A stretch of DNA of 64,000 nucleotides. Origin: Bacillota bacterium (lineage in GTDB: Bacteria; Bacillota; Proteinivoracia; UBA4975). The notes under the pieces are model-generated. The model made no database searches. It was not told the DNA's origin and saw only the letters and a list, made by a program, of their open reading frames with translations. This document shows positions 5,788 through 58,976 of the stretch, one piece after another. The translations under genes and the position numbers were made by a program. How positions within the stretch are numbered: position 1 is the stretch's first letter; every line of letters starts with the position of its first letter. The DNA is taken from contig JBMNFF010000001.1 of assembly GCA_050949165.1 (NCBI GenBank), positions 1,059,185 through 1,123,184 of the forward strand. The letters run 5' to 3'.

Positions 5788-5788
5788 C

Positions 5789-6622
5789 CTACTCCACCTC
5801 CAATTCTCTAAGGGCCTGTTCGGCCTGTTCCCGGCTGGGTGCGCTGCCGTGCCAGCCCGCCTGATTCTCCATAAAGGACACGCCCTTGCCCTTAATTGTC
5901 CGGGCAATAATTACCGAGGGCTTGCCGGCGGCGGCTTTGGCTGCATCCACTGCAGCGAAGATCTGAGCGAAGTCATGGCCGTCGATTTCCTGCACATGCC
6001 AGCCGAAGGCTTCAAACTTGTCCTTGATGGGCGCCACCTCCATGACGGAGCTGACGGCGCCGTCGATCTGCAAGTTGTTATAGTCGACAAAGGCGATGAC
6101 ATTGTCCAGTTTATAATGGGCCGTGGTCATGGCTGCCTCCCAGACCTGGCCTTCCTGGAGCTCGCCGTCCCCCAAGAGCACGTAGATCCGGCGCTCATCC
6201 TGTCCATCCAGCCTGGCGGCCAGAGCCATGCCGTTGGCCGCGGAAAGCCCTTGTCCCAGGGAGCCGGTGGTCATATCCACGCCAGGGGTGAGCTTGCGGT
6301 CGGGATGCCCTTGGAGCCTGCTGTCAATTTTGCGAAAGGTGAGGAGCTCCTCCTTGGCAAAAAAGCCCCTTTCCGCCAAAGCGGAGTAGTACACCGGCGT
6401 TGCGTGGCCTTTGCTGAGGACGAAAATATCCCGCTCCTGCCAGCGGGGCCGGGTGGGATCCACCTTCATGATTTTGAAGTACAGGGCGGCGAGAATTTCC
6501 ACCGCCGATAGCGACCCGCCGGGATGACCCGACGCCGCTTCGGTTACCATGGAGACGATGTGACGGCGCATGCGCTGGGCAACAGCCTTCAGATTTGCAT
6601 ATCCTTCCACTCTCTTCTTCAC
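5789..6622 (-). CDS. transketolase, N-terminal subunit
   Basis: TPP-binding N-terminal half (GHPGGSLS, GDGELQEG); stop 1 nt before the C-terminal subunit start. Confidence 0.9.
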   Translation of the reverse strand: MKKRVEGYANLKAVAQRMRRHIVSMVTEAASGHPGGSLSAVEILAALYFKIMKVDPTRPRWQERDIFVLSKGHATPVYYSALAERGFFAKEELLTFRKIDSRLQGHPDRKLTPGVDMTTGSLGQGLSAANGMALAARLDGQDERRIYVLLGDGELQEGQVWEAAMTTAHYKLDNVIAFVDYNNLQIDGAVSSVMEVAPIKDKFEAFGWHVQEIDGHDFAQIFAAVDAAKAAAGKPSVIIARTIKGKGVSFMENQAGWHGSAPSREQAEQALRELEVE

Positions 6623-7479
6623 CTCTTTATTATATTTAGCGGTGCAAAGCCCATGCCCTGCACTTCGTGAACCTCGGTGACGATTACGAAGGCGTCGCTG
6701 TCTTGCTCCGCTACCAATGCCTTGAGTTTGGAGATTTCGCTGGCGCTGACCACCACCAGGAGGACTTCCCGCTCCCGGCCGCTCCAGGCGCCGCGACCGT
6801 CCAGAAGAGTCGCTCCCCGCTGGAGCTGCTCCAACACGGCGTTGGCAATGGCATTGCTGGCTTCGCTGATGATAAAGGCCGCCTTGGCCCGCCTGAGCCC
6901 CTGCTGGACCAGGTCGATGACCCAGATGGACACAATCAGGGCGATGAGGGCGTACATGGCCAGCTCGGCGTCAAAGACTATGCCCGCCAGGGCCACCACC
7001 AGAAAATCCACCCCCAGGAGGGACTGGCCGACGGTGAGGCCGGTAAATCTGTGGATTATCTGGGCGGCCAGGGCCGTGCCGCCGGTGGTGCCCTGGGCGC
7101 GAAAGACTATTCCCACCCCGACGCCCAGAGTAATGCCGCCGTAAATGGCTGCCAGCAAGAGATCCTCGGTCACGGGACCATAGCCCTCGGTGAGGGCGAC
7201 AAAGGCCGGCAGCAACAGGGACCCCACCAGGGTATTGATTCCAAACCGGGGCCCCAGGACAAACCAGCCCAGGATAAACAAGGGAATGTTGATGGCCAGC
7301 AAGAGGATGCTGACGGGAATGCCCAAAAGATGGGTCAAGACCACCGCAAGCCCGCCTGCGCCGCCCGGAGCGATCTGGTTGGGCACCAGGAGCAGGTTCA
7401 GGGCCAGGGCCGTCACCAGGCAGCCCAGGGCGATTCCCAAGATATTCTTGAGTCGGAACCCTCGAAACAGAGTCTTCAT
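6619..7479 (-). CDS. YitT-family membrane protein (DUF161/DUF2179-like)
   Basis: polytopic hydrophobic N-terminal domain plus soluble C-terminal domain; family call by eye. Confidence 0.6.
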   Translation of the reverse strand: MKTLFRGFRLKNILGIALGCLVTALALNLLLVPNQIAPGGAGGLAVVLTHLLGIPVSILLLAINIPLFILGWFVLGPRFGINTLVGSLLLPAFVALTEGYGPVTEDLLLAAIYGGITLGVGVGIVFRAQGTTGGTALAAQIIHRFTGLTVGQSLLGVDFLVVALAGIVFDAELAMYALIALIVSIWVIDLVQQGLRRAKAAFIISEASNAIANAVLEQLQRGATLLDGRGAWSGREREVLLVVVSASEISKLKALVAEQDSDAFVIVTEVHEVQGMGFAPLNIIKR

Positions 7480-8222
7480 GCCTTGCTGGCAACAATTATC
7501 ATGCGGCGGCTAGAAGCGGTAAAACTGCCGCCGCCGGTGTCGCCGTAGACCTCCTCTACGGAAAATCTGCTATGCCGGAGCAGGAGCATGATTTCCCGGG
7601 GAAAGAGCAGGCTGACAGCCGACTCTTCCAGGACCTGCTCCAGCAGGACGCCGCCTTTATACTGCTGATAGATGGTGGTCAGGTAACAGCGCTGGTTGAT
7701 GAGATCACAGCGGGAATGGACAGTGCGCAGCAGCTTGACATCGCCATCCAGGTTGACGCTGCGCCCGACGCTGGTCCCGCCCTGGAGCAATTCCAGCCTG
7801 GGCGGGTACAGGTCCAACACTATTTTTCCCCCCAGGACCAGAAGTTTACGCAGATTGGCCAGGCAGCGCAGCTGTTCTTCACTGCTGAGGAGGCGGGCGA
7901 AACTGCCCCGGGCCAACAGAGCCGTGGTAAACTGGCTCTCCCAGGGAAAGTCCTGTATATCTCCCTCGACAAAGTGCAGGCGCTCCCGGCTGCTGGGAGG
8001 GAGCTTGTCCGCCTTGTCCCGGGCAATGTCCAACATATAGGGGGAACTGTCCACCCCCACCACTTCCAGACCGGCTCCCGCCAGGTCCAAAGCCAGGGCG
8101 CCGGTGCCGCACCCCAGGTTCAGCACCGGCCCTCCCGTACTCAGGACAAGACGGCGGAAAAAGGGGATATCTTCCCTGCCGGCAAAGTAATCGCAGTAAA
8201 GAGACGCCTTCTTGCCATACAT
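7476..8222 (-). CDS. class I SAM-dependent methyltransferase
   Basis: VLNLGCGTG and VVGVDSS Rossmann methyltransferase motifs. Confidence 0.7.
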   Translation of the reverse strand: MYGKKASLYCDYFAGREDIPFFRRLVLSTGGPVLNLGCGTGALALDLAGAGLEVVGVDSSPYMLDIARDKADKLPPSSRERLHFVEGDIQDFPWESQFTTALLARGSFARLLSSEEQLRCLANLRKLLVLGGKIVLDLYPPRLELLQGGTSVGRSVNLDGDVKLLRTVHSRCDLINQRCYLTTIYQQYKGGVLLEQVLEESAVSLLFPREIMLLLRHSRFSVEEVYGDTGGGSFTASSRRMIIVASKA

Positions 8223-9336
8223 CTACTGCCCCTCCCCGTAGCCTGCTTGCCAGCGCAGCCAGGCGTCAATAAACACATCCACATCTCCGTCCAGGACGGC
8301 GTTGGCATTGCCCACCTCCACATTGGTCCGGTGGTCTTTGACCAGGCTGTAAGGATGAAACACATAGGAGCGAATTTGGCTGCCCCACCCGATTTCCCGC
8401 TGTTCGCCTCGAATCCTGGCCAATTCTGCCTCCTGCTCCTGGCGCTGGCGGTCGGCCAGCTTGGCCTGGAGAATCTTCATGGCAGCCAGCCGGTTGGCGT
8501 GCTGGGAGCGTTCATTCTGGCAGGAGACAACTATCCCCGTGGGCAGGTGGGTGATCCGCACCGCCGAGTCGGTGGTGTTGACATGCTGCCCCCCGGCGCC
8601 GCTGGACCGGAAGGTATCAATGCGCAGGTCGTCGGGATTGATTTCGATTTCCGAATCCTCACTGACCTCGGGAATGACATCCAGGGAGGCAAAGGAAGTG
8701 TGGCGCCGCCCCGAAGAGTCAAAGGGAGAAATCCGCACCAGGCGGTGGACTCCCTTCTCGGCCTTGAGATGCCCGAAGGCATACTCGCCCTTGATCAGCA
8801 GAGTCACGCTCTTGATTCCCGCCTCTTCATCGGGCAGGTAGTCCAGGATTTCCACCCCGAACTTATGCTTCTCCGCCCAGCGGGTGTACATGCGCATCAG
8901 CATCTCCGTCCAGTCCTGGGACTCCAGGCCCCCGGCCCCGGAATGCAGGGAGATGATGGCGTTGTTGCGGTCATACTTGCCGCCCAGGAGTTGGGTCAGC
9001 TCCAATTGGCTGAGCTCTGCCCGCAGCGCTTCCAAGCCCTGACCGATCTCGGCCGCCAGTTCCGCCTCGTCCTCGGCCAGGGCCAGCTCGGTAAGCTCCG
9101 CCAATTCCTGCCAATCCCCCTGGAGCTTGGTCCAGGCATCGGTAACCCGGCGCAGGGAATTGACCTGGCTGATGACGGCTTGGGCCTGCTGTTGATCATC
9201 CCAAAAGTCGGCCCCGGACATTTTGGCTTCCAGCTTCTCTACTTCCCTGAGCTTGGCGGGGAGGTCAAAGGGAGACCCCCATTTCCTCGATTCTCTTGCC
9301 AAGCTGCTGAAGTTCAGACCTGTATTCGCTTAGCAA
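8223..9336 (-). CDS. prfB: peptide chain release factor 2 (requires programmed +1 frameshift)
   Basis: RF2 core incl. SGAGGQHVN; frame-0 leader [23 protein letters not shown] ends at in-frame TGA within CTT TGA C (9264-9270, minus strand); TTG start at 9336 with GAGG RBS. Confidence 0.9.
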
Positions 9337-9361
9337 AAAAACACCTCGCTTTCCTGAGCAT

Positions 9362-9444
9362 CGCGACAACGGGGACGCTTCTCCCTGTCGCGGTTGTCAT
9401 TCATCGCCGCCGACGCGACAGGGAGAAGCGTCCCCGCTGTCGCG
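9362..9444. repeat. nested palindromic element: two 31-bp arms (CGCGACA..GGGGACGC..TGTCGCG) that are near-perfect reverse complements, 21-bp spacer
   Basis: arms 9362-9392 and 9414-9444 differ at one position from perfect inverted repeat; lies in secA-prfB intergenic region. Confidence 0.75.
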
Positions 9445-9445
9445 C

Positions 9446-11950
9446 CTACTGCCCGCAGCAGCGCTTGTACTTCTTGCCACTGCCGCAGGGGCAGGGATCG
9501 TTGCGACCCACCTTTTTGGCGGCCTGCTTGGGCCCGTGGACTGCGGCGCCGCCGCTGGGCGGAGTGGGATTGGCCACTGCCACTGAACGGCGCACCGGCT
9601 GGCTGACCAGGCGCACCCGCATGATCAAGCGGGCCACTTCTTCTTGGATGCTCTCGGTCATATTGTTAAACATATCGTAGGCTTCGAACTTGTACTCCGT
9701 CAGGGGGTCCTTCTGACCGTAGGCCCTGAGGCCGATGCCCTGACGCAGGTCGTCCATGGCGTCCAGCTGCTCCATCCACTTCCTGTCCACGGTGCGCAGC
9801 ACCACCACCCGCTCCAATTCCCGCATGGCTTCGGAGCCGATGGTCTTCTCGCGGAACTCGTAGAGGGAACGAGCCCTGGCCTCCAGCCACTCCCGGATCT
9901 CGTCGTGGATTTTGCCCTCCAGGTCTTCCACCTTGACGCTGCCCGGGACCAGGACGCTGTTCTCGATATATTCTACCAGCCCCTTGAGGTCGTATTCCTC
10001 GGGGTACACTTCCTTGCTGGCCCAGGTATCCACCGCCCGGGCAATCACTTCGTCCATCATCTTGAGGATCTGCCCCTTGAGGTCTTCGCCCTCCAGGATC
10101 TGGCGGCGCTGCCGATAGATGATGTCCCTCTGTTGGTTGAGGACATCGTCATATTCCAGGACATGCTTGCGGATGTCAAAGTTGCGGGCCTCAACCCGCT
10201 TCTGGGCCGATTCGATGGCCCTGGAAAGCAGGGGATGGTCGATGGGCATAGAGTCGTCCATGCCCAGTTTTTCCAACATGCCCATGTAGCGCTCCGAGCC
10301 GAAGAGGCGCATGAGGTCGTCTTCCAGGGAGATGAAGAATTGAGACGAGCCGGGATCCCCTTGGCGCCCGGAACGCCCCCGGAGCTGGTTGTCGATTCTC
10401 CGGGCCTCATGGCGCTCGGTGCCCAGGATGTGCAGGCCGCCCAGGTCGGCAACCCCTTCCCCCAGGACGATGTCGGTGCCCCGACCCGCCATGTTGGTGG
10501 CGATGGTCACGGCGCCCCTCTGACCGGCCCCGGCCACGATTTCCGCCTCCCGCTCGTGATGCTTGGCGTTGAGGACGCTGTGGGGGACCCCCCGCCGCTT
10601 GAGCATGGCGCTGAGGAGCTCCGACCTCTCGATGGATATGGTCCCCACCAGCACCGGCTGCCCGGTACTGTGACGCCGGACAATCTCATCCACCACAGCC
10701 TTGAACTTGCCTGCCTCGCTGCGATAGACGGCGTCGGGCAAATCCTGGCGGATCATGGGCCGATTGGTGGGAATTACCACCACATCCATGCCGTAGATCT
10801 TGCGGAACTCGTCCTCTTCGGTCTTGGCCGTTCCCGTCATGCCGGCAAGCTTTTTATACATGCGGAAGTAATTTTGCAGGGTAATGCTGGCCAGGGTCTG
10901 GCTCTCCCGCTCTATCTTGACATTTTCCTTGGCCTCGATGGCCTGGTGCAAACCGTTGGAATAGCGGCGCCCAAACATCAGGCGACCGGTAAATTCGTCG
11001 ACGATGATGACCTGGCCATCCTTGACCACATAGTCCCGGTCCCGCTTCATCAGAACGTGGGCCCGCAGGGCCTGGTTGACATGGTGGGAAACTTCCATAT
11101 TTTCAGGGTCATACAGATTCTCGATATTCAAGGCCTGCTCGATTTTGGCCACGCCCTCTTCCGTCAGGGCGACGTTGCGGGCCTTTTCATCAACTATGTA
11201 GTCAACTTCATTGCGGAGCCTCGGCACCAGCCGGGCATAGCGGTAGTACTGGCTGGTATCCTGATCGACGGCGCCGGATATGATCAAGGGGGTCCGGGCC
11301 TCGTCGATGAGGATGCTGTCCACCTCGTCGACGATGGCAAAGTGCAGGGGCCGTTGCACCAGGTTTTCCTTGTACAGCACCATATTGTCCCGCAGGTAGT
11401 CAAAGCCGAATTCATTATTGGTGCCGTAGGTAATATCAGCCAGGTAGGACTGGCGGCGTTGGCCCGGGTCGAGGCCGTGAACAATCAGGCCCACATTCAA
11501 ACCCAGCAGTCTGTAAATCTTGCCCATCCATTCACTGTCCCGGCTGGCCAGATAATCGTTGACAGTGACGACGTGAACGCCCTTGCCCTCCAGGGCGTTG
11601 AGATATGTAGGCATGGTGGCCACCAGGGTCTTGCCTTCACCGGTCTTCATCTCGGCGATGCGGCCCTGGTGGAGGACAATGCCGCCCAGGACCTGGACAT
11701 CGTAGTGGCGCTGGCCCAAAGTCCGCTTGGCCCCTTCCCGGACCAGGGCATAGGCCTCCGGCAAGAGGGCGTCCAGCGTTTCTCCCCGGGCCAGGCGTTC
11801 TTTAAACTCCCCGGTCTTAACCGCCAGGCTGTCGGTATTCAGCTTCTCAAATTCGGGTTCCAGGGCGTTGACTTTCTCCACAATGCGCATCAGCGCCTTG
11901 ATTTCCCGGGCGTCATCCCCGGTCAGCAGCCCCTTGATGAACTTAAACAT
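9446..11950 (-). CDS. secA: preprotein translocase ATPase SecA
   Basis: 845-aa ORF with DEAD-like motor motifs and C-terminal zinc-binding [14 protein letters not shown]; start taken at MFKFIKG. Confidence 0.95.
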
Positions 11951-46174: not shown

Positions 46175-46412
46175 CTCATGGGATTACTGGTAAAATATAT
46201 TGAAGAGGTGTGATAAAAATGCCTAATCGAAGAAAACCCCTGGGACAAAGCCAGGGAAAACACCCTTGCCAAGCCCCAGGGGACAAGCAATGCGCGGATA
46301 TTACGATTTAAGCACCCAATCCACCCTTATTTATTATTTTCTTCACATGGTCCACTCCGCCAATATGTGGTATATTACCAGTAATATTTTAAGTCATAGG
46401 GAGTTGCATGAT

Positions 46413-47182
<770 letters not shown>

Positions 47183-47186
<4 letters not shown>

Positions 47187-49036
47187 AAATTCAGGCGCCC
47201 CCTCCCCTGACCCAAGCTCCGCCCCCCCGCGGCTTCTGGCAGGATTTTCGCCTCCTCGCCGCCACCCAGTTGCGCCTGACCTGGAACAAGCTCAGGCATT
47301 GGCCGGCCAAGATCTGGATTCTCATCATCATATCCAGCCTGGGCTTTCTGGGAATGCTGACGGGTTTAGGATTTTTGGCCTTCGGCGCCTTTGCCCAACT
47401 CTCGCCTGACACCGCCCAAGGCTTTTTGTCCCTGCTCTTTATGGTTGGCGTTGCCGCCGAGATGTTCTTCGGCATTACCGCGGCCTTCACCACCCTGTAC
47501 ATGTCCGAGGATCTGGAGTTGCTCTTCGTAGCCCCCATCTCCACCCGGGCGGTATTTGCCGTAAAAACCTTGGTGATAGCCTTCAGCAACCTCCTGGCCA
47601 CCACAGTCTTAATAGTCCTGCCCGGCCTTTTTTACGGCCTGCTCTTCAAGGCCTCCCTGGCCTTTTTCCTCTGGCTGCCGGTGATTGCCCTGGCCCTGCT
47701 GGCCATCGGCACCGCCCTGGCCGAGCTCTTAAACATGGTGGTCATGCGCATCGTCCCGCCCCACCGCAGCAAGGAAGCGGTAGGCGTCATCGGGGCTGTA
47801 TCGGGAATCCTCATCGCCATAGTCTTTCAAATTCCCAACCTGCTCCTGAGCAATCAGGCAAATATAAATCTGGACCAGTGGCTGGCCGCCCAGGAACAGC
47901 TGCTGCATGTCATGAACTACTTCCCCTGGGGGTGGAGCGCCCAGGCCCTGATTGAGGCCAGCGCAGGCCGATACTTGCCTGCCCTGGGCTGGACCCTGTT
48001 GGTCCTGGCCCTGGGAGCGGGAATCTTTACCCTGGCCTTCCTCCTGGTGGAGCGAGGCTTTCGCCGGGGTTGGATCTCCTTGAGCCAGGGTGGTGGTCGC
48101 CGCCGCAAGGACCGGCAAACTAAGGAGGAGCAAACCCAGGCCCGGAAAAGGCGCGGGGAAATCCCCGTCCTTCCCCAAACTCAGCCCTGGCCTCTGACCT
48201 CACCCTGGAACGGGATGTGGGCGGTGGCCAGGAAGGACCTGCTCTACATGAAGCGGGATACCAGGGAATGGTTCGGCTACCTGACCCCTCTCCTGTTGAT
48301 GTTCTTTTTCACCGCCCGGGTCCTCTTCTTTCCCGGGCCTGGCGCCGAGCAGAGCCTGGTTATGGTCCTGATTATGTACACCATCATGTTCAGCGGCAAC
48401 ATTGCCCTGCAATCCTTTGGCAGGGAAGGTGAATCGGACTGGCTCCTGAACAGCGTGCCCCTGGCCGGATGGCCGGTGGTGTGGGGCAAGCTCATAGGCT
48501 CCGTCTTGCCTACCCTGGTCCTGATGGAGGCGCTCCTCACCGGCACCGGCCTGGCCATAGGCCTTCCTCCCAACATCCTGGTGGCCATGGCCGTGGGGGC
48601 AGCCCTGATCTCGGTGGGCTCCAGCGCCATCGGTCTCTACTACTCGGTGAATAACTGCCGCTACAATCCCGACGCCCCCCAGCAGAGAATTGCCCCCGGC
48701 GCCACCCTGCTGATGTACCTGGTCAACCTCCTTTTCATCGGCGTGCTGGCACTTTGCCTGGTCTATACCTTCCCGCCCCAGGGATTGCTGGCCTTTGTCG
48801 GGGAACTGCCGCCGGCGCCCTTTGTCTGGGGATTCCCAGAAACCTTGATCTATTTACTTTTCCTCATCCTGGCTCCCTTGCGCTGGCCGCCTGCGGCGCG
48901 CATAGGCTTAGGCTTGCTCTTCACCTTGTCCCTCTGGCTGGCTGTGTTCTTCAGCTTCATGAAGGCCACCGTCCGGCAAAGCCTTAAGGGCCTAAGGGTA
49001 GAGCTGGTTACAAGCACAGGCAAGAAAAGGAAATAA
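47183..49036 (+). CDS. large polytopic membrane protein, putative ABC exporter permease
   Basis: 617 aa, about 12 TM helices with a basic cytoplasmic loop; GTG start overlaps ATPase stop. Confidence 0.55.
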
Positions 49037-49068
49037 AATAATAAAGACCGCCGCAGCGGTCTTTATTA

Positions 49069-49563
49069 TTATTCAACAATCCTGAAGGCCTTGGCGCCTG
49101 CTCCGCAAATGGGGCACTTGTCCACCGGGGCCAGCTCGATATTGCCGCACACCGTACACAGGTGGAAGGTCAGTTCTTCTTGGGAATCCAGGTTATCCAA
49201 AAGCCTCTGGTAGAGGCCGGCGTGGACCCGCTCGGCTTCCATGGCAAATCTGAAGGAGCGGGCAGCTTCCTTTTCCCCGGCTTCTTCGGCACGCTTGACC
49301 ATGTCGGGGTACATGCTCTCGTATTCATAGGTCTCGCCGGCCACACCTTCCTTGAGGTTCTCGGCGGTGCTCCCAATTCCCTTCATGGCCCGCAGATGAG
49401 AATGGGCATGTATTGTCTCTGCCTCGGCGGCAGCCCGGAACATTTTGGCGGCGTTCTTATACCCCTCCTGCTCCGCCTTGGCAGCAAAAGCCAAGTACTT
49501 GCGGTTTGCCTGGGCCTCTCCGGCAAAGGCCTCCTTTAAGTTCTGCAAAGTCTTCTCATCCAT
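49069..49563 (-). CDS. rubrerythrin (ferritin-like diiron domain plus C-terminal rubredoxin-like CxxC...CxxC)
   Basis: ExxH diiron motifs and CTVCGN...CPICG; start at MDEKTL with AAGGAGG RBS. Confidence 0.85.
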   Translation of the reverse strand: MDEKTLQNLKEAFAGEAQANRKYLAFAAKAEQEGYKNAAKMFRAAAEAETIHAHSHLRAMKGIGSTAENLKEGVAGETYEYESMYPDMVKRAEEAGEKEAARSFRFAMEAERVHAGLYQRLLDNLDSQEELTFHLCTVCGNIELAPVDKCPICGAGAKAFRIVE

Positions 49564-49581
49564 TATTGGCATCCTCCTTAT

Positions 49582-49596
49582 CAGTAATGATTACTG
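49582..49596. promoter_or_regulatory. 7-1-7 palindrome CAGTAAT-G-ATTACTG, Fur/PerR-family-like box
   Basis: perfect dyad immediately upstream of rubrerythrin RBS in divergent promoter region. Confidence 0.45.
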
Positions 49597-49677
49597 CTTA
49601 ACTATACACCATGGGCGCCCTGCTGTCAAGAAAATATCTTGCATGGCGCCGGCCAATTGGCTATGCTCTATTAAGAG

Positions 49678-50364
49678 GTGATTGCCGTGCACAAATGCCC
49701 CTGCAATAACACATGCGCGTCCCGGGTTCCTATCTTCCAGGGGCTCACTCCCCATGAGTTGGGCCGCTTCAACGATATCCTCACCACCAGAGAATATCCC
49801 GATAGCGAGATAATATACACCCAGGACAGTCCAGCCCAGGTTCTCTGTATCGTCAATTCGGGAGCGGTCAAGCTGTTTAAGACCTCTCCCGAAGGCAAGG
49901 AACAGGTCCTGCGCATCCTGAGTCCCGGGGATTTCTTCGGGGAAGCGGTGCTCTTCAGCCAGCAAACCCGGACCAGCTCGGCCCAGGCCCTGGGCCCCAC
50001 CAAGATCTGCCAGTTGGACAAGTCCCAGGCCGAAGAGATCATCCAGCGCCATCCGGAAATCGCCCGCAAGCTCATTGCCGCCCTCAACCTCCGCCTCGCC
50101 CAGGCCGAGGAGCAGATAGAATACCTGGGGACCCGCACCACCCTGCAGCGGGTGGCCCGCCTGGTGGTGGACCTGGCCCGGGAGCAAGGGGACAAAATCG
50201 TCACCCTCCCCCTGAGCCGGGAGGGCCTGGCCAGCCTCACCGGCATGACGGTGGAAAACTTCAGCCGCAAACTCAGCGAGCTCACCGAGCAGGGACTGAT
50301 CACTCCCCAAGGGCGCAGAAAGTTAGTTATAAAGGACTTGGAGAGCTTGGAGAAGCTGACATAA
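49678..50364 (+). CDS. Crp/Fnr-family transcriptional regulator
   Basis: N-terminal Cys cluster (CPCNNTC), cNMP-binding-like fold, C-terminal HTH (REGLASLTGMTVENFSRKL). Confidence 0.8.
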   Translation: MIAVHKCPCNNTCASRVPIFQGLTPHELGRFNDILTTREYPDSEIIYTQDSPAQVLCIVNSGAVKLFKTSPEGKEQVLRILSPGDFFGEAVLFSQQTRTSSAQALGPTKICQLDKSQAEEIIQRHPEIARKLIAALNLRLAQAEEQIEYLGTRTTLQRVARLVVDLAREQGDKIVTLPLSREGLASLTGMTVENFSRKLSELTEQGLITPQGRRKLVIKDLESLEKLT

Positions 50365-50403: not shown

Positions 50404-51399
50404 TTAATTGCTGAGTTCCGCCCTAAGCTGCAAGACCTCAGATATGGGAAGCTCAGACACTTGCGCCACTTGCTCAGGAGTAAATCCCAGCCGGAGCGCA
50501 TTTCTGGCTGCTAGTCTCTTTGCCTCCAGAATCCCTTCAGCCCTGCCCTCTGCCCTGCCTTCTGCCCTGCCTTCAACCCGGTACTTCTGCCAGGTTTCCT
50601 GCAAGATTCGTTCAAAATTAGTTATCAATGATTTTCCCCCCTTCCTTCTCAAATGGATCAGGACTCGATCACGGTCGTGTTTCTCCATTCCCTTTAAGAG
50701 TACCTTACCTGTCCACCTAGAAAAACGCCGTACATCTTCTTCCGGCATCTGATCCAAGACTGCAGCAAGCTCACCGATTCCAAACAGCACCTCATCCATC
50801 CCTCTGTGTTGCTCCATATAGAAGACACTACCCATCAAATTGCCCAGGGCAAGCAGCTGGCCCTTGCCATATCTATTTACATCAACGAGGATGTATTTAA
50901 AATCTAATGCGTATTTGCTAAAGAACTGAAATCCTGCCTGACATTGGCTAAAGCTTGTCCCCGCCGTCCATTTGCCTTTCCCATTGTATAGCACGCACGG
51001 GACAATAACCGGCAGAGCGAAACTCCCTTTACAGGCAACCTCATTGAACCAATAATTGCGCCAGATTTCCACCATATACATCAATAAACGAAAGGGCATC
51101 ATTTGATCGACGGTAGATTGCAATTCCAGCAAGAGATAGAAGTATACATCTTGCTCGGCCAAACGAAGCCTGTAGATCAGATCGGCCTCTTGGTGCCGAA
51201 AGTCCTGTAGTATAAAGGATTTTGGAATAAGCATTACGTCTTTCGCCTGAATGCCCTTGACCCACTCTGCCTTAACAAAGGTCTGCAAGAATTGCAGAAA
51301 GGTCGACTTATTGGCCAGCAAATACTTGTACCCCGTATCATGCTTATTGCTGGGGACCGCATATTCCTGGTCTGGCTCCCTAACCAAGGCTAAGGACAT
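50404..51399 (-). CDS. Rpn-family (YhgA-like, PD-(D/E)XK) recombination-promoting nuclease / putative transposase
   Basis: N-terminal HDxxYKxL and nuclease core pattern, C-terminal repeat-containing domain (EGRA x3-4 then LGFTPEQVA...LP) as in E. coli Rpn proteins; start moved to MSLALV at 51399. Confidence 0.7.
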   Translation of the reverse strand: MSLALVREPDQEYAVPSNKHDTGYKYLLANKSTFLQFLQTFVKAEWVKGIQAKDVMLIPKSFILQDFRHQEADLIYRLRLAEQDVYFYLLLELQSTVDQMMPFRLLMYMVEIWRNYWFNEVACKGSFALPVIVPCVLYNGKGKWTAGTSFSQCQAGFQFFSKYALDFKYILVDVNRYGKGQLLALGNLMGSVFYMEQHRGMDEVLFGIGELAAVLDQMPEEDVRRFSRWTGKVLLKGMEKHDRDRVLIHLRRKGGKSLITNFERILQETWQKYRVEGRAEGRAEGRAEGILEAKRLAARNALRLGFTPEQVAQVSELPISEVLQLRAELSN

Positions 51400-51524
51400 A
51401 GTAGCCGCCGCCTTAATAATAATGTTAGCACAGTTTCCAATAATATAATATAGGAACACGTGTTCCCTGTCTAGCTTATCTTTTCTCTGATGGTAGCAGA
51501 AATAGAGTCTCCAATTAAGCGGGT

Positions 51525-51773
51525 GGGGCTGTCGCAAAATGAGATATTCGTACATATTCTCCCGAAAATCTCTCCGGGTAGGGGCCGAAAGTATAAAGAA
51601 GGAGCTGTCGCAAAACTAAATCTCCGCGCATATTACCTCAAGAAAATCTCTGTGGGTGGGGGCCAAAAGATCCCCCTATAAAGGTAATCCAATGTAGGGG
51701 CGGGTTTTCCCGCCCGACTCACAAGAATGGCTAATTGGGGAATATGGCGGATTGCCAGTTTTGCGACAGCCCC
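51525..51773. mobile_element. MITE-like element bounded by inverted GGGGCTGTCGCAAAA(T/C) termini, with internal partial duplication
   Basis: left terminus 51525-51541, internal direct copy 51601-51616, inverted right terminus 51758-51773; no ORF. Confidence 0.55.
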
Positions 51774-51779
51774 TTGCTT

Positions 51780-53702
51780 TTACGCCAAGGCCTTTTCTAT
51801 TTCCGCCATGGCCCTTTCCTCCAGGTCGCAGCATTGCCGGACCAAGGCGAGGACCGCCGGAGCCTTGCCAGGGTCAAAGGCCTGGCCCCCGGGCCCGGTA
51901 AAGGGGACCAAGCGGGTTATCTCCTGGTAATTCGCTGCCACCTGGCGGTAGAGGTCAATTGTACCCTCCAGGCCCTTTAGTTCACCGGACCGGGCGGCAA
52001 CATACTCCAGGTATTTGGCGATGCAGGCCTTGGAGTCAGCATAGACGTTGAGATTATAGGCCAGGCCGAAGGGGTCGTAATCTCCCCGTTCCAAAGTGCT
52101 TATGAGATTGGCATAGGCCTTTCTGCCGCAGGCATACCCGGGAGTCGAGTGCTGCTCTTTATTCCACTCCCTCAAGCCGTATTCCAGGGAATCCCGATAG
52201 ATCTTCTCCGGGTCGACCTCCACCCTGCCCTTGAGAATCTGCACAAACAGGTATGGAACCTCGGATATGCCCAGGTTGCCATAGCTCAAGGGATCCGGAT
52301 CTGAGTTGAGGCAATCTTGAACAAACAAAACTTCATCGCCGTCATCATAACCGTCAATCAGGCCAAATTCCAGGAGACCTGTCGGCGCCCAGGTGATCGC
52401 CGGCACCCCCCTGGCTATGGATGCTTTGATCTTTGCCAGGGCATCCTCCTGAATCATATGGAAAGTGTTGAGCCTGGGGTCCCTGAAGACCAGGACTATT
52501 TCGCTGTGCACGCCAATCCTGTCCAGCATGGTGAAATGCTCCATCCCCCAGTCGTACACCGTCACCGAGCTGGGGCAGGCCGTTTCGTGCACGATGAAGT
52601 GAAAGGCCATCCCCGTCATGCCCATGAGTTTATAGATCTCGTCCTGCCACCACTCCACCTTGCGCAAAGCGCCGTCCACGCTGGCGATATATGAGTTCCA
52701 GGTCATTCCCATCTTCGCACCCAGTCGCATTGCCGCATCAGTACCTCCTTTAACAGGTTGTGGCTCCATTATAATCGACGGGGTAGGACATAAAGTGTCG
52801 CACCCCTCAGGCATATTTGCCAAAATCATCTTTTGTAGCCTGGAACAGAAGCGCTGCCGTAACCAGCGGGGTGAAAGAAGGGTAAATTGTTCTACCCCGG
52901 CTATAATTGCCGCCAGAAATTTGCTGGAATTTGTGAATTCCACTCTGTAGACCTGAGGCTCTCCAGAGGGAGATACCCGCAGCCCCGCCTTTCTCAACTG
53001 ATTCTCCCCCTGGGTTTTTACAAGGGCCACATAAGGCCTGCGGTAGTTAAAGTCATCTTTATATTCCTCCGGATCAAACCAGGGAACGATGGTAAACTCC
53101 TCGTCCCGAACCAGGGCGCCTCTTATCCGCTCCAGTTTAAAGATGCGGACCTCCCCGCGGAGTTCACAATACCCGACCACATAATTGCCATCCCCCTGAC
53201 AGAAGAATTTATAGGGGCAGATGATCCTGCGGGATTTTACCCCCGCGGCGCTGACATACTCTATCTCAACTTTATGCCTCGATTGCATGGCTTTGCTGAG
53301 GAGCTTATATGCCCTGACCTCCCGGGGACCGGGATTGATAATTGGTAAATTCCTCTCGCCTTCGCAGTTTCCTTCCCCGCCCAAGCGGGCAAAGAGTTGG
53401 GCCAACTGCCGGGCCTGTCCACCTTCCCTGTTTCGGTAGTGGAAGGCCAGGTAATCCAGGGTGGCCTTTTCTTCTGCCGAAATAAAATTGGCCGGCAGGA
53501 TAAAAGCTCCCCCTCGGTAAAAATACCCGTTGTTCCTGGGACAATATGCAACGGGCGCCCCCAGGGAGTAGCGCAAGTACTCAATATCCCGGGAAGCCTG
53601 GCGGGTAGAAATCTCAAATTCCTCGGCAATAATTCGGCAATTGGGATACCTGCCATGGCGAATCTGCTGGTCAATCCAGAGTATCCTGTGTAAGCTGCTC
53701 AT
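51780..53702 (-). CDS. HTH-WYL domain regulator fused to about 340-aa uncharacterised C-terminal domain
   Basis: N-terminal HTH (NCRIIAEEFEISTRQASRDIEYL), WYL-type beta domain (RRIICPYKFFCQGDGNYVVGYCELRGEVRIFKLERI), continuous 640-aa ORF; ATG with GGGGGTGA RBS. Confidence 0.65.
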   Translation of the reverse strand: MSSLHRILWIDQQIRHGRYPNCRIIAEEFEISTRQASRDIEYLRYSLGAPVAYCPRNNGYFYRGGAFILPANFISAEEKATLDYLAFHYRNREGGQARQLAQLFARLGGEGNCEGERNLPIINPGPREVRAYKLLSKAMQSRHKVEIEYVSAAGVKSRRIICPYKFFCQGDGNYVVGYCELRGEVRIFKLERIRGALVRDEEFTIVPWFDPEEYKDDFNYRRPYVALVKTQGENQLRKAGLRVSPSGEPQVYRVEFTNSSKFLAAIIAGVEQFTLLSPRWLRQRFCSRLQKMILANMPEGCDTLCPTPSIIMEPQPVKGGTDAAMRLGAKMGMTWNSYIASVDGALRKVEWWQDEIYKLMGMTGMAFHFIVHETACPSSVTVYDWGMEHFTMLDRIGVHSEIVLVFRDPRLNTFHMIQEDALAKIKASIARGVPAITWAPTGLLEFGLIDGYDDGDEVLFVQDCLNSDPDPLSYGNLGISEVPYLFVQILKGRVEVDPEKIYRDSLEYGLREWNKEQHSTPGYACGRKAYANLISTLERGDYDPFGLAYNLNVYADSKACIAKYLEYVAARSGELKGLEGTIDLYRQVAANYQEITRLVPFTGPGGQAFDPGKAPAVLALVRQCCDLEERAMAEIEKALA

Positions 53703-53941
53703 GTTTCACCCCCAGGGAAATGATAGACGTCCCTGCACTGTTCTCAGCCTTCTCCTGCCCGGACAAAGGGCCGGCTGCCAAAGAACAGTTCTGCGCGGGC
53801 GCATCCCAACCTCGGCTCCCCGACCGCTTTTTCCCAGTATAGCATCTGAAAAAATAAATTTCTAATTTGATTTTTATCATGTTTTCCCTTTTCTGGCTCC
53901 TCCATAATGAAGACAGAACAAAGGTGAAGGAGTGTTGAAGG

Positions 53942-54178
53942 ATGAAAAAAATTACCTTGTTAGGAGTTGAAGGGTGCCCCACCTGCGCCCGCCTGGATGC
54001 AAAGGTTCAGGAGGCCGTGGCCGCCCTGGCCGCCCCGGTAGAGGTGGAGAAGATCGCCGATCCCGCGAAAATAATGGAAATCAATGCCGGCGGTCTGCCC
54101 GCCGTGCTCGTCGACGGGGAAGTCAAGGCCCTGCGCCGGGTCCCGGAAGTAAAGGAGCTGGTAGAATGGCTGCAGTAA
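53942..54178 (+). CDS. thioredoxin-fold small redox protein (CPTC active-site motif)
   Basis: 78 aa, GCPTC motif near N-terminus typical of glutaredoxin/thioredoxin-like proteins. Confidence 0.6.
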   Translation: MKKITLLGVEGCPTCARLDAKVQEAVAALAAPVEVEKIADPAKIMEINAGGLPAVLVDGEVKALRRVPEVKELVEWLQ

Positions 54179-54399
54179 AGGTAACCGCCCGTCTGGAACA
54201 ACTGTCCTGCCCCAGCTGCGCCGACATGATTGTCAATGTAGTCCGGAAAATCAAGGGCGTAGAGGAAGCGGAAGTACGCTACACCACCAGCAAGCTGCTG
54301 GTCACCTATGACGACGCTGTTGTAGCCTGGGATGAAATAGAAGATACCGTGACCAAGCTGGGTTACGCCGTTACCGGCAAGAGCGAGAGGAGGGATTAG
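54166..54399 (+). CDS. heavy-metal-associated (HMA) domain metallochaperone
   Basis: 77 aa from MAAVKV; CPSC metal-binding motif in ferredoxin-like fold context; AAGGAG RBS. Confidence 0.65.
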   Translation: MAAVKVTARLEQLSCPSCADMIVNVVRKIKGVEEAEVRYTTSKLLVTYDDAVVAWDEIEDTVTKLGYAVTGKSERRD

Positions 54400-54400
54400 C

Positions 54401-56287
54401 ATGGCCGTGGCCACAAACCGCATGCCCAAGCCCACCGGCCTTTGGCTGAGGAAAAATGAAAAGTTCCTGATACTGCTGGTTTCCGGCGCCCTCATCATCC
54501 TGGGCTGGCTGGCGGGATACCTCTCTCCCCAAGCCAGGGCCATCCTCATGGTGGCTGCGGCAATTGTGGCCGGCTACCGCATCGCCCAGACTGCCTGGTA
54601 CGCCCTCCGGGCCCGGGTGGTCAGCATCCAGCTCCTGGTCACCATCGCCGCCGTGGGTGGAGTCCTCATCGGCGACCAGTGGGAAGCCGCCGCCGTCACC
54701 TTCCTCTTTGCCCTGGGCAACTACCTGGAAGCCCGGACCCTGAACAAGACCCGGGATGCCATTCAGCAGCTCATGAGCATGGCCCCGGCCACAGCCGTGG
54801 TCCTCCGGGACGGCCGGGAAGTGGAGGTAGACCCCGATGAAGTTCGGAAGGGAGAGATCGTCCTGGCCCGCTCCGGGACCAAAATCCCCGTAGACGGCAT
54901 CGTCGTCAAGGGCAGCGCCTCGGTCAACCAGGCCGCCATCACCGGCGAGTCGGTGCCGGTGGAGCTCACCCCAGGCGGCCAGGTCTTCAGCAGCACCCTG
55001 GTGGAGGCTGGCTACCTGGAGATCCAAGCCCAGCGCGTGGGCGAGGACACCACCTTCGCCCGCATCCTCCACATGGTGGAAGAAGCCCAGGAGCGCAAGG
55101 CCCCCACCCAGAAGTTCATCGAGAAGTTTGCCCGCTGGTACACCCCTGCCATCATTGGCCTGGCCATTGTCACAGGCCTCGTCACCGGCAACCTGCACAT
55201 GGCTCTGACCCTCTTGGTCATCGGCTGCCCCGGCGCCCTGGTCATCTCCACCCCCATCTCCATGGTGGCCGGCATCGGCAACGCCGCCAAGAACGGCGTC
55301 CTGGTCAAGGGCGGCGAATTCCTGGAAAAGGCCGGCAAAGTCACCCTGGTGGCCTTTGACAAGACCGGCACCCTCACAGTGGGCCGACCCGAGGTCACCG
55401 CCGTCCTGGCCCTGGTGGGCAGCCAAGAAGATCTGCTCCGCCAGGTGGCGGCAGTGGAGAAGGGCTCGGAGCATCACATCGGCCGGGCCATAGTGCGCCG
55501 GGCCGAAAACCTGACCCTGCCCCAGGCCTCAGGCATCGAGGTCTTCCCCGGCGGCGGCATCTCCGGCCGGGTAGAGGCTGAAGAAATCCTGGTGGGCAAT
55601 CCCCGCCTCCTGGCCGAGAGGGGCGTCGGCCTGCCGGAACAGGTCCAGGATTGGATGGCTACCCGGGAGGAGCGGGGCGAAACGGCAGTGCCGGTGGCCG
55701 TCGACGGCCAGGTTCGCGGAGCAATTGCCATCGCCGATACCCTGCGCCCCGAGGCCAGAGAAGCAATCGCCGTCCTGCGCCGGTCCGGCAAAAAGGTGGT
55801 AATGCTGACGGGGGATAATCCCCGCACCGCCGCGACAATTGCCGCCGAACTGGGCCTGGACGACGTCAAGGCCAATCTCCTGCCCCAGGACAAGGTCAAG
55901 GCCATTCAAGACTACCGCCGCCAGGGCCACATGGTGGCCATGGTGGGAGACGGCATCAATGACACCCCCGCCCTGGCCGAGGCAGACCTGGGCGTAGCCA
56001 TGGGAGCTGCCGGCACCGATGCCGCCATCGAGACCGCCGACCTCACCCTGATGAGCGATAACCTCAACCGGCTGGTCCGGGCCCTGCACCTGGGCAAAGC
56101 CACCCTGAGCAATATCCGCCAGAACGTCGCCTTCGCCGTGGCAGTGGTCCTCCTCCTGGTCCTGGGCGTCCTGGGCCAGAAGGTCTTCTTGGCCACAGGT
56201 ATGCTGGCCCACGAAGCCAGCGTCATGCTGGTCATCCTCAACGCCATGCGGCTGCGAGTGTGGAAGCCCAAAAAGAACCCGCGTTAA
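54401..56287 (+). CDS. heavy-metal translocating P1B-type ATPase
   Basis: DKTGTLT phosphorylation motif, GDGINDTPAL, TGES actuator motif; TM6 motif reads CPG rather than CPC; no N-terminal HMA domain. Confidence 0.9.
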   Translation: MAVATNRMPKPTGLWLRKNEKFLILLVSGALIILGWLAGYLSPQARAILMVAAAIVAGYRIAQTAWYALRARVVSIQLLVTIAAVGGVLIGDQWEAAAVTFLFALGNYLEARTLNKTRDAIQQLMSMAPATAVVLRDGREVEVDPDEVRKGEIVLARSGTKIPVDGIVVKGSASVNQAAITGESVPVELTPGGQVFSSTLVEAGYLEIQAQRVGEDTTFARILHMVEEAQERKAPTQKFIEKFARWYTPAIIGLAIVTGLVTGNLHMALTLLVIGCPGALVISTPISMVAGIGNAAKNGVLVKGGEFLEKAGKVTLVAFDKTGTLTVGRPEVTAVLALVGSQEDLLRQVAAVEKGSEHHIGRAIVRRAENLTLPQASGIEVFPGGGISGRVEAEEILVGNPRLLAERGVGLPEQVQDWMATREERGETAVPVAVDGQVRGAIAIADTLRPEAREAIAVLRRSGKKVVMLTGDNPRTAATIAAELGLDDVKANLLPQDKVKAIQDYRRQGHMVAMVGDGINDTPALAEADLGVAMGAAGTDAAIETADLTLMSDNLNRLVRALHLGKATLSNIRQNVAFAVAVVLLLVLGVLGQKVFLATGMLAHEASVMLVILNAMRLRVWKPKKNPR

Positions 56288-56307
56288 GAGCCGCGGGTTC
56301 TTTGCTT
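56273..56307 (+). terminator. intrinsic terminator after P1B-ATPase
   Basis: aagaacccgcg-ttaagagc-cgcgggttctt hairpin followed by TTTGCTT. Confidence 0.7.
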
Positions 56308-56582
56308 ATGGGATAACCCGCTTCCTTCTACATGCTAAGAATAATGACGCCCTGCATGGTGAAAATAGCCTGACGGGTTGACATCCCACCAGCGACGGCA
56401 TGCCAACGGGTAGAGAATGACTATACTCATTCCCGGACCGAACTGCCACCCGCGCCGCTGCGTCACATTTATTGAGCAGAAGCCAGCTGACCTGTTACCC
56501 GTTTGCCAAGCCGATGCATTACCTTGGTAAACCTCTATATAAATATATTAAAATAACTTATTAAAGAAATTAAGGTAAGGGC

Positions 56583-56611
56583 TTGCAAAATAAAATTGAA
56601 CCCTGTATAAT
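56583..56611 (+). promoter_or_regulatory. sigma-70-type promoter TTGCAA-N17-TATAAT with AT-rich upstream tract
   Basis: -35 at 56583-56588, -10 at 56606-56611, AT-rich UP-like region 56530-56580. Confidence 0.6.
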
Positions 56612-56664
56612 TATGGCGGAAGGTAGCGGACATACCAGCGAGACGAAATAAGGAGGTGAATTCC

Positions 56665-56766
56665 ATGAAAGAAACCTTCCCCTATCGCCCCACCGGCCTC
56701 TCCACCGGCAAGGGCAAACCCCCAACCCGTCCCCCCTTTCCCATCCAACTGCTTCCACCCCGGTAA
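56665..56766 (+). CDS. small peptide, 33 aa (MKETFPYRPTGLSTGKGKPPTRPPFPIQLLPPR)
   Basis: ATG 7 nt after AAGGAGGTG; paralogous to next ORF; below ORF-track size cutoff. Confidence 0.5.
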   Translation: MKETFPYRPTGLSTGKGKPPTRPPFPIQLLPPR

Positions 56767-56793
56767 ACCAAAGCCATAAAAGGAGGTAAAACC

Positions 56794-56886
56794 ATGAACA
56801 GAACTTTCCCCTATCTGTCCACCGGCCTTTCCAGCAAGAGGAATCCGGCGCCGCGGCCAGTTAATCTGCCCCCGCGTCACTGCTAA
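56794..56886 (+). CDS. small peptide, 30 aa (MNRTFPYLSTGLSSKRNPAPRPVNLPPRHC)
   Basis: ATG 8 nt after AAAGGAGG; shares TFPY-xx-TGLS and LPPR with preceding ORF. Confidence 0.5.
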   Translation: MNRTFPYLSTGLSSKRNPAPRPVNLPPRHC

Positions 56887-56909
56887 AAACCCACTGGGAG
56901 GTGAATTCA

Positions 56910-56972
56910 ATGAAAAGAAAAGTTGCCGTCCGCATCCGCCACGACGTCGCCTTGCCGGGAAAGATGCGCTGA
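56910..56972 (+). CDS. small basic ORF, 20 aa (MKRKVAVRIRHDVALPGKMR)
   Basis: ATG 6 nt after GGGAGGTG; unrelated in sequence to the two preceding peptides. Confidence 0.3.
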   Translation: MKRKVAVRIRHDVALPGKMR

Positions 56973-57147
56973 TGAAAACACGCGGAAACATGGTTATCGG
57001 CACCGCAAGACACCGCAATACAGGATAAACGGGCTGTTCCCCGGTAAGGGAAGAGCCCGTTTGCGTTATATAAAAAGCGTGGCCTTGTCCCCCCGAGGCG
57101 ATAACAGATATAATTAACACAAGCGATTTTAAGAAGGAGGAAGAAAA

Positions 57148-57873
57148 ATGAAGAATACCGGTCTCGAGTTCCTGGAGCTGACCAAATACCCTCACCTCAG
57201 CGAGTCGGATCAGGAAAAGGACCTGCCCTGCCCCCAGTTGGAGACCCCGGAGAGCGGTGAACAGATAGACCTGCCTGGCCCCGAGAGCATCAGCCTCGCC
57301 GAAATCAGCATTCAGACGGCCATCAACAACCGGCGCAGCCTGCGCAAATTCAGCACCACTCCGCTGAGCATGGAAGAGCTGTCCTGGCTGCTCTGGGCCA
57401 CCCAGGGGGTCAAGGAAAAGCTGTCCCATGCCACCTTGCGCACCGTCCCCTCGGCGGGAGCCCGCCACCCCTTTGATACATACCTGGCAGTGGCCAATGT
57501 CTCCGGCTTGAAGCCCGGCCTCTACCGCTACCTGGCCCTGACCCACAAACTGGTCCTGATCAGGGAAGACAGTCAAATCGGGGAGAAAGTGGCAACTGCC
57601 TGCATCAAGCAGAAGTGGATTGCCAAGGCGGCGGCGACCTTTTTCTGGGCAGCCGTTCCCTACCGCACCACCTGGCGTTACAGCGAGCGGGGCTGGCGCT
57701 ACATCTTCCTGGATGCCGGCCACATCTGCCAGAACCTCTACCTGGCCTGCGAGGCCGTCGCCGCCGGCTGTTGTGCCGTCGACGCCTTCGACGACGACGC
57801 CCTCAACCAACTGCTGGGCCTGGACGGCAAAGAGCGGTTTGTTCTCTATGCCGCGCCTGTGGGCCATAAATAA
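57148..57873 (+). CDS. SagB-type dehydrogenase (nitroreductase-fold FMN enzyme)
   Basis: RRSLRKF, LLWATQG, PSAGARHP, GLYRY, RYSERGWRYIFLDAGHICQNLYLA, LGLDG motifs; ATG with AAGGAGG RBS. Confidence 0.7.
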   Translation: MKNTGLEFLELTKYPHLSESDQEKDLPCPQLETPESGEQIDLPGPESISLAEISIQTAINNRRSLRKFSTTPLSMEELSWLLWATQGVKEKLSHATLRTVPSAGARHPFDTYLAVANVSGLKPGLYRYLALTHKLVLIREDSQIGEKVATACIKQKWIAKAAATFFWAAVPYRTTWRYSERGWRYIFLDAGHICQNLYLACEAVAAGCCAVDAFDDDALNQLLGLDGKERFVLYAAPVGHK

Positions 57874-58875: not shown

Positions 58876-58976
58876 GGGGCTGCCGCAAAATGTCCCCCTG
58901 TCATATTGGAAAGCCCGCCCTGCCGGGAATGTCCCGCAGCGGGCAATATGCAGAGATATCATTTTGCGACAGCCCC
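58876..58976. mobile_element. MITE-like element, second copy (GGGGCTGCCGCAAAATG ... CATTTTGCGACAGCCCC)
   Basis: 17-bp inverted termini at 58876-58892 and 58960-58976; same terminal motif as 51525-51773. Confidence 0.5.

Follow-up and report, generated by a model that had tools for sequence, protein, structure and literature searches.

A wHTH-WYL regulator fused to a BtrH-like domain in a Bacillota bacterium, and the conserved gene pair it unites

The fused gene and its parts

The window analysed here is a stretch of 64,000 nucleotides (nt) from a bacterium of the phylum Bacillota (contig JBMNFF010000001.1, assembly GCA_050949165.1). On its minus strand lies an open reading frame (ORF) of 640 codons in which a transcription regulator with winged helix-turn-helix (wHTH), WYL and WCX-like parts is fused to a domain with the fold of BtrH-like enzymes. 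A first-pass annotation, made from the letters alone, had described a helix-turn-helix (HTH)-WYL regulator with a large additional C-terminal region in one continuous 640-residue ORF, and Pfam, PADLOC and the relatives of the protein confirm this. The parts of the gene are as follows.

51780–53702, minus strand: whole ORF including the stop codon, wHTH-WYL-WCX regulator fused to the BtrH-like domain (640 residues, ATG start, uninterrupted)
53517–53702, minus strand: wHTH DNA-binding domain, residues 1–62
53319–53516, minus strand: helical linker from wHTH to WYL, residues 63–128 (two helices in the model, at lower model confidence; layout as in the CapW linker domain)
53097–53318, minus strand: WYL domain, residues 129–202 (Pfam PF13280; beta-strands at 143–202 in the model)
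52812–53096, minus strand: WCX-like C-terminal extension of the regulator, residues 203–297 (PADLOC WYL model and a modelled alpha/beta unit at 224–296)
52731–52811, minus strand: linker, residues 298–324, made of the regulator tail (GCDTLCPTP) and former intergenic spacer, predicted disordered
52743–52751, minus strand: Shine-Dalgarno (SD) sequence AAAGGAGGT inside the ORF, coding K318-G319-G320, with the best anti-SD pairing of the ORF's in-frame starts
52728–52730, minus strand: in-frame ATG, Met325, candidate internal translation start 12 nt downstream of the SD
52143–52730, minus strand: papain-like (C39/BtrH_N-like) N-lobe of the BtrH-like domain, residues 325–520
52692–52694, minus strand: S337, in the N-lobe
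52368–52370, minus strand: E445, in the N-lobe
52341–52346, minus strand: D453/D454, in the N-lobe
51783–52142, minus strand: helical-bundle C-lobe (DUF4872-like) of the BtrH-like domain, residues 521–640 (long helices, model residues 192–305)

The N-terminal winged HTH is present, with a weak match to the Pfam model HTH_11 at residues 25–60, and the Pfam WYL model matches residues 132–196 with 58.7–61.2 bits against a cut-off of 21.8. PADLOC models of WYL regulators span residues 5–206 and 133–292. In CapW the linker domain occupies residues 71–136 (PMC11662680). The Pfam WCX model remains below its threshold in the window protein (E 0.16, 12.8 bits against a cut-off of 23.9) and is above it in the fused relative P0116 (29.2 bits); the modelled alpha/beta unit has the right size for a WCX. 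Sequence similarity to members of the regulator class with solved structures is marginal: PafBC is matched with E 0.004, in the WYL domain only. In the full-length model (predicted local distance difference test score, pLDDT, 83.7; predicted template modelling score, pTM, 0.68) residues 300–321 are disordered, with pLDDT below 50.

The ORF is genuine, since the identical protein is found, in the same gene order, in two independent assemblies (JGI 3300062814 and Logan SRR31066179), and full-length relatives exist, in at least 21 protein clusters whose alignments cover 94–100% of it, mostly 100%. Their identities are graded, at 84%, 65–50% and down to 35%, and their lengths are 606–695 residues. 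A frameshift or assembly error is excluded, and no frameshift splits the ORF into two ordinary genes.

A conserved regulator-partner gene pair and its repeated fusion

We sampled 84 loci that carry the C-terminal domain, 80 of them from species-level genomes and four from metagenomes. The genomes belong to at least six phyla and include Bacillota (many of them Paenibacillus), Desulfobacterota, Thermotogota, Spirochaetota, Caldisericia and Anaerolineales. A homologue of residues 1–300 lies directly upstream of the domain, on the same strand, in 73 of the 84 loci. The first-pass annotation had asked whether the C-terminal domain has a gene of its own in homologues, and in 66 of these 73 loci it does, next to the regulator gene at a distance of mostly 17–250 nt; in the other seven the two are fused in frame. 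Six of the 11 partnerless loci have upstream sequence that is too short to judge; with these set aside, about 94% of the loci have the two genes side by side in the same orientation. In L005 and L019 upstream sequence is present and no regulator was detected there, while in L037 and L042 (protein P0088) an XRE HTH fused to the domain replaces the WYL regulator. In one Paenibacillus metagenome-assembled genome (L057, 5335–8936) the domain gene follows an 802-residue LuxR/MalT-type regulator (STAND and LuxR HTH) instead of a WYL regulator.

The regulator and domain halves have diverged together (Mantel r = 0.82, a value reached in 0 of 999 permutations), and clustering of all ORFs from the 80 loci identified no conserved third gene beside the pair. 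Because the two parts are adjacent separate genes in most paired loci, the window ORF has joined the members of a conserved gene pair; it is no regulator that gained a novel appendage. It is the single-polypeptide form of a conserved two-gene module. A longer version of the module was seen in 20 Paenibacillus loci (L061–L084, at about 7000–10000 in each locus), in which an HTH-WYL regulator is followed by two tandem BtrH-like paralogues. This three-gene module may point to a hetero-oligomeric partner.

Among database proteins with the domain, 166 are standalone, 22 are fused to a complete wHTH-WYL-WCX regulator, 17 are fused to a version of the regulator in which HTH and WCX remain but the WYL barrel has been lost, and another 28 are extended in other ways. 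On a neighbour-joining tree, parsimony gives about 13 state changes from a standalone root. The pair has thus been fused in frame several times independently, and in the window the reading frame of the regulator has run on past its stop codon and through the short spacer. In L009 and L017, where the regulator is a gene by itself, the same tail motif GCDTLCPTP stands at its end. The linker shows conservation with L001, a locus of the sister lineage, at both the DNA and the protein level. The ATG of Met325 lies three codons downstream of a GCG codon (Ala322) that aligns with the start of standalone homologues.

The start codon at the junction has the best anti-SD pairing among all 28 in-frame ATG and GTG codons of the window ORF. 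The same signal was found in all ten fused ORFs that were examined, which represent at least five fusion clades: the junction start ranks first to third in anti-SD pairing among their 19–36 in-frame ATG and GTG codons. This retention of the junction SD and start in every case suggests, at the level of sequence, that translation of the free domain still begins inside the fused ORF. An out-of-frame ATG on the same strand (52736–52738), 4 nt past the internal SD, opens an ORF of 11 codons that ends in TGA. Translation from Met325 may be in competition with it or coupled to it.

L001 also carries the reverse event. At 5682–6957 of this locus an internal deletion has removed the equivalent of residues 49–320 or so. 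What remains is a 48-residue HTH remnant, 81% identical and in a shifted frame, followed by a standalone BtrH-like gene that is 70% identical. L001 is a natural fission of the fusion.

Fold, conserved residues and possible role of the BtrH-like domain

The extra C-terminal residues had been reported to hold no assignable motif, and this stands: from about residue 298 to 640 there is no match in Pfam, NCBIfam, PADLOC or PDB sequences. The Pfam families BtrH_N (PF14399) and DUF4872 (PF16169) are without a match in the window domain at any E up to 10, searches of the PDB by sequence and by profile with the C-terminal part were empty, and sequence searches with single domain copies from proteins with an M56 domain (described below) were likewise without matches. 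With the C-terminal part alone as query we found 95 close relatives, nearly all of them standalone proteins of about 320 residues without any Pfam domain. A profile search of 1.84 billion representatives gave 1,401 clusters, formed at 50% identity, at E ≤ 1e-3 and 153 at E ≤ 1e-30. The domain corresponds to no WYL-associated domain of known regulatory function; it is a regular WYL partner, itself without known function.

The fold of the domain is bipartite, with a papain-like N-lobe and a helical C-lobe, and both parts match in CtaG, AziU3 and CcbD. Matches to BtrH-like enzymes span about 250–270 residues at 10–13% identity, and the next-ranked matches are C39-like peptidase domains and other papain-like proteases. 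Among 54 family members, Pfam matches below threshold were obtained to Peptidase_C39_2 (18/54), BtrH_N (7/54) and DUF4872 (2/54), and some paralogous copies in other proteins are only 2–4 bits from the BtrH_N cut-off. The C-terminal domain is a remote, unnamed branch of the BtrH-like fold. The possible enzymatic domain that was suggested from the sequence is therefore borne out as far as the fold, which is enzyme-derived. The same bipartite fold is shared by BtrH, CtaG, AsbE and CcbD, which are acyltransferases or ligases, and by AziU3. In contrast to these, the window domain falls below the Pfam thresholds, has Ser/Thr and Glu in place of the catalytic Cys and His, and is paired with or fused to transcription regulators, outside any carrier-protein or biosynthetic context. 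No carrier-protein or nonribosomal peptide synthetase families were found in the top 25 Pfam families of 141 genes flanking the module in about 75 genomes.

The catalytic triad of CtaG consists of Cys11, at the N-terminus of helix α1, His128 and Asp144, and a Cys-His-Asp triad is also present in BtrH and AsbE (PMC12865890). We counted the corresponding columns over 240 domain instances, with the columns assigned by secondary-structure order, motif spacing and weak, sub-threshold C39_2 coordinates. The Cys column, at the start of helix α1 (S337 in the window), has Ser in 150, Thr in 76, Ala in four, Met in three and Cys in one. The His column, before the central strand (E445, in the motif LEFGxIxGYDD), has Glu in 218, Asp in seven and Gln in three; His was found there in 0 of the 240 instances, so that the Cys-His pair is present in none. 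Near-invariant residues are F367, W385, G397, W438, G451, Y452, D453, D454, Y530, Y549, K/R558 and E628. The conserved set (Ser/Thr337, Glu445, Asp453/454, several Trp and Tyr, and Glu628) presumably lines the former active-site pocket. Given the topological mapping of the columns, the alignment indicates that thiol-imidazole chemistry is gone while this residue set is strongly constrained.

The domain is also found in other architectures. It is fused to an XRE-type HTH (HTH_3) in P0088 and P0132 and to an ArsR/MarR-type wHTH (HTH_5/MarR), in one or two copies, in P0257 and P0259. In both kinds of fusion it is the only domain that does not bind DNA. Transducers of the BlaR1 type with an M56 domain (P0146, P0186, P0216 and P0250; 1,208–2,590 residues) carry tandem copies of the domain, two to three per protein by the family hidden Markov model and two to six matched stretches in the profile search. 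P0250 also has HEAT repeats. P0183 and P0205 are secreted proteins with two copies. As in BlaR1/MecR1, the copies in the transducers lie C-terminal to M56, in the sensor position, and the sensor of BlaR1 likewise has an enzyme-derived fold, that of penicillin-binding proteins. The likeness to BlaR1/MecR1 is limited, in that the fold differs, the window domain is cytoplasmic and lies beside a second candidate sensor, the WYL domain, and sensing is suggested by the architecture. To have been joined again and again to DNA-binding domains that are unrelated to one another, and to a transmembrane transducer, is characteristic of an input domain, and so is the persistence of the domain after loss of the WYL barrel. 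A sensory or regulatory role is therefore favoured by the fusions to XRE and ArsR/MarR HTH domains and to BlaR1-type transducers.

The analysis establishes the anatomy and the pairing of the two parts, their repeated fusion, the loss of Cys-His and the retained internal start signal, and from these we infer the following functions. The first gene of the module would encode a wHTH-WYL-WCX transcription factor of the PafBC/DriD/CapW/BrxR type and the second a protein of about 320 residues with the BtrH-like bipartite fold. This second protein would not be a downstream product but a ligand-binding input or regulatory partner with a physical action on the regulator. The fused protein, probably a dimer, would bind its own promoter under the influence of two inputs. 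One, at the WYL domain, is probably a nucleic-acid-type ligand, by analogy with CapW, DriD and PafBC, which sense single-stranded DNA; the other, in the BtrH-like pocket, would be a small molecule, a peptide or an acyl group. A free 36-kDa domain may also arise if translation starts internally, at Met325. PafBC, DriD, CapW and BrxR (COG2378/YafY) share the wHTH and WYL layout with the window regulator; the window protein differs from them in its extra BtrH-like domain of 316 residues, and its gene lies beside neither a defence system nor an obvious DNA-damage regulon.

We favour, at a probability of about one half, a model in which the regulator is acted on not only through its WYL domain but also by the BtrH-like module, as a ligand-binding or regulatory partner. 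A wider proposal can be made only tentatively. According to it, the fold forms a widespread family of signal inputs (about 1,400 clusters), a pseudo-enzyme or a single-turnover acyl acceptor via Ser337 (compare the sensor serine of BlaR1), mounted on at least four kinds of DNA-binding domain and on BlaR1-type proteases. It would give the WYL regulator a second, distinct input, and the Met325 start would yield tethered and free forms.

Several points speak against the domain being such a partner. S337 and E445 are matched to the catalytic Cys and His by topology and not by a residue-level superposition, and the Ser/Thr-Glu-Asp set could be a non-canonical active site. Fusions to a beta-lactamase-fold domain (P0249) and to GNAT (P0235) hint at enzymatic contexts, and the order of the separate genes, regulator then partner, is also expected for a regulator with regulated cargo, as in CapW and BrxR. 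The full-length model, with its pTM of 0.68 and disordered linker, gives no confident docking of the two halves and, as a prediction, neither supports nor excludes their contact. The ligand, the DNA target and the protein-protein contact are all inferred. As to the internal start, retention of the SD could in part be due to the recency of some fusions; the window's own clade keeps the signal at the junction down to 55% identity.

The main rival, which we regard as unlikely, though less so than the others, is that the BtrH-like protein is a regulated enzyme, an acyl or amide transferase or a hydrolase that is active through a non-canonical Ser/Thr-Glu-Asp site. The WYL regulator would switch on its expression, for example after DNA damage, and the fusions would either tether the enzyme or let DNA binding report its occupancy, as in BirA or PutA. 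The regulator-to-partner order in 66 loci resembles that of operons controlled by CapW and BrxR (PMC11662680), conservation of the polar residues where the active site used to be is very strong, every one of the nearest structural relatives is an enzyme, and the GNAT and beta-lactamase-fold fusions exist. However, the Cys-His pair is absent from all 240 instances, and Ser and Thr swap freely at the nucleophile column, where some members have Met, Ala or Gly, an unusual latitude for a nucleophile. The vicinity holds no carrier-protein or biosynthetic genes, and a domain that has been fused repeatedly to DNA-binding domains of four kinds and to BlaR1-type transducers behaves as input domains typically do, and not as cargo enzymes do.

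Cleavage of the regulator by its partner is a good deal less probable. Here the papain-fold domain would be an anti-repressor protease that cuts the HTH regulator, in the linker or the tail, upon a signal, as in ImmA/ImmR, IrrE/DdrO and CapP/CapH. These systems likewise couple an HTH regulator to a partner with a protease fold, with occasional fusions. The papain/C39-like fold, the pairing with HTH regulators including the XRE type, and the precedent of CapH and CapP, in which a protease activated by DNA damage cleaves the partner repressor (PMC11662680), are all in keeping with it. The partners ImmA, IrrE and CapP, however, are metalloproteases with intact active sites, whereas the window partner is papain-like and, as in every other member, without the catalytic pair. 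No HExxH or Peptidase_M78-like zinc-metalloprotease was matched by Pfam in the ORF or the family members, nor was there any Pfam peptidase match above threshold, and the BlaR1-type proteins have an M56 protease of their own and use the domain at the sensor position.

Surroundings of the gene and significance

Two further features adjoin the fused gene.

53836–53864, minus strand: promoter-like site TAGAAA, 17 nt, TG-n-TATACT, predicted from consensus match and conservation
50404–51555, minus strand: Rpn/YhgA-like gene (Transposase_31, PF04754; TIGR01784), a 383-residue ORF downstream of the fused gene

In the region upstream of the fused gene (53703–53900) the blocks ATCAAATTAGAAAT and TGCTATACT (an extended -10) are conserved between the window and the relatives L087 and L001. 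This region is shared with a divergent operon of thioredoxin-like, HMA and P-type ATPase genes. A near-palindrome, AGAACtGTTCT, lies at about 53782–53792 within a leader of about 130 nt; from the upstream regions of five relatives no common palindromic operator could be assigned, only the promoter-like blocks. Rfam gave no RNA family in 51300–54000.

The conserved neighbourhood comprises, on one side, thioredoxin-like, HMA and P-type ATPase genes or a nitroreductase and, on the other side, Crp/Fnr, rubrerythrin and an ABC transporter. In the window, 46266–50364 and 53942–57873 are accordingly rich in genes of redox and metal homeostasis: an ABC transporter pair, rubrerythrin, Crp/Fnr, a thioredoxin-like protein, an HMA chaperone, a heavy-metal P-type ATPase and a nitroreductase. 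This neighbourhood could hint at the physiological signal of the regulator.

The Rpn gene and the element resembling a miniature inverted-repeat transposable element (MITE) that the first-pass annotation had placed next to the fused gene are both present. The 5' end of the Rpn ORF is probably over-extended: the 347-residue homologue in L001 and the calls in L085 and L086 (331 residues) align from 'MSLALVREPDQEY', and the true start is probably an ATG near 51402. The C-terminus carries an (EGRA)n repeat. The spacer between the two genes (51403–51779) is a repeat-rich element similar to MITEs or to repetitive extragenic palindromic sequences. In it a perfect inverted repeat of 15 nt, GGGGCTGTCGCAAAA / TTTTGCGACAGCCCC, at 51525–51539 and 51759–51773, encloses tandem repeats of 76–78 nt. 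The 12-mer TTTTGCGACAGC is found five times in the window, where 0.27 occurrences are expected; two of the copies form an inverted pair at 58879/58962 (58879–58973). Rpn homologues flank the fused gene only in the window's lineage and its sister, and relatives at 64% and 55% identity have the same core neighbourhood without Rpn. We therefore rejected Rpn as a functional partner.

The defence-island setting proposed for the gene is not supported: the Rpn gene and the MITE-like repeat are confined to this lineage, and the flanks show no defence enrichment. The proposed search for defence genes near homologues found none enriched among the 141 flanking genes (about 75 species), which are heterogeneous (GyrI-like 5, GNAT 5, Cass2 4). 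A two-gene anti-phage module, with a WYL sensor-regulator and a BtrH-like effector, is accordingly improbable. It would agree with the frequent occurrence of WYL regulators in defence islands (PMC9122601, PMC4012209), with the compact, self-contained make-up of the module in variable neighbourhoods, and with the adjoining Rpn gene and repeat element. On the other hand, each PADLOC model matches at most two of the 141 flanking genes, and no known defence system lies beside the window gene, where PADLOC gives only generic cross-matches to ABC-ATPase and cyclic-nucleotide (cNMP)-binding domains. The Rpn adjacency is limited as described, and the core-genome position of the gene is syntenic among relatives as distant as 55% identity. 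The co-divergence of the N- and C-terminal halves indicates co-inheritance, although by itself it is compatible with transfer of the whole module.

The weakest alternative, that a sequencing or assembly error or a recent, functionless stop-codon loss has merged two ordinary genes, would fit the former intergenic DNA in the linker with the downstream gene's SD and start codon still in place, and the broken version in L001 with only its HTH remnant, but it is negligible in view of the same ORF in two further independent assemblies, the length kept by fused relatives at 84–35% identity and the several independent fusion clades.

WYL regulators are central to the control of DNA damage and phage defence in bacteria, and to our knowledge they have so far been understood as single-input sensors of single-stranded DNA. 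The partner family described here accompanies one large WYL subfamily in about 94% of judgeable loci, across the phyla sampled, and has repeatedly become fused to it. This Rosetta-stone pattern of pairing and repeated fusion predicts a direct functional or physical link. In the searchable literature we found no description of a WYL regulator paired with a BtrH-like (papain-like) protein, and the partner domain, whose fold derives from thiotemplated acyltransferases without retaining their catalytic pair, has no Pfam or NCBIfam model; what is new here is an unreported conserved partner or sensor domain on a WYL regulator. If it is indeed a sensor, the domain would be a new input module for bacterial signal transduction, and S337, E445, D453/D454, the linker and the Met325 start would be testable handles on the signal of the WYL regulator.

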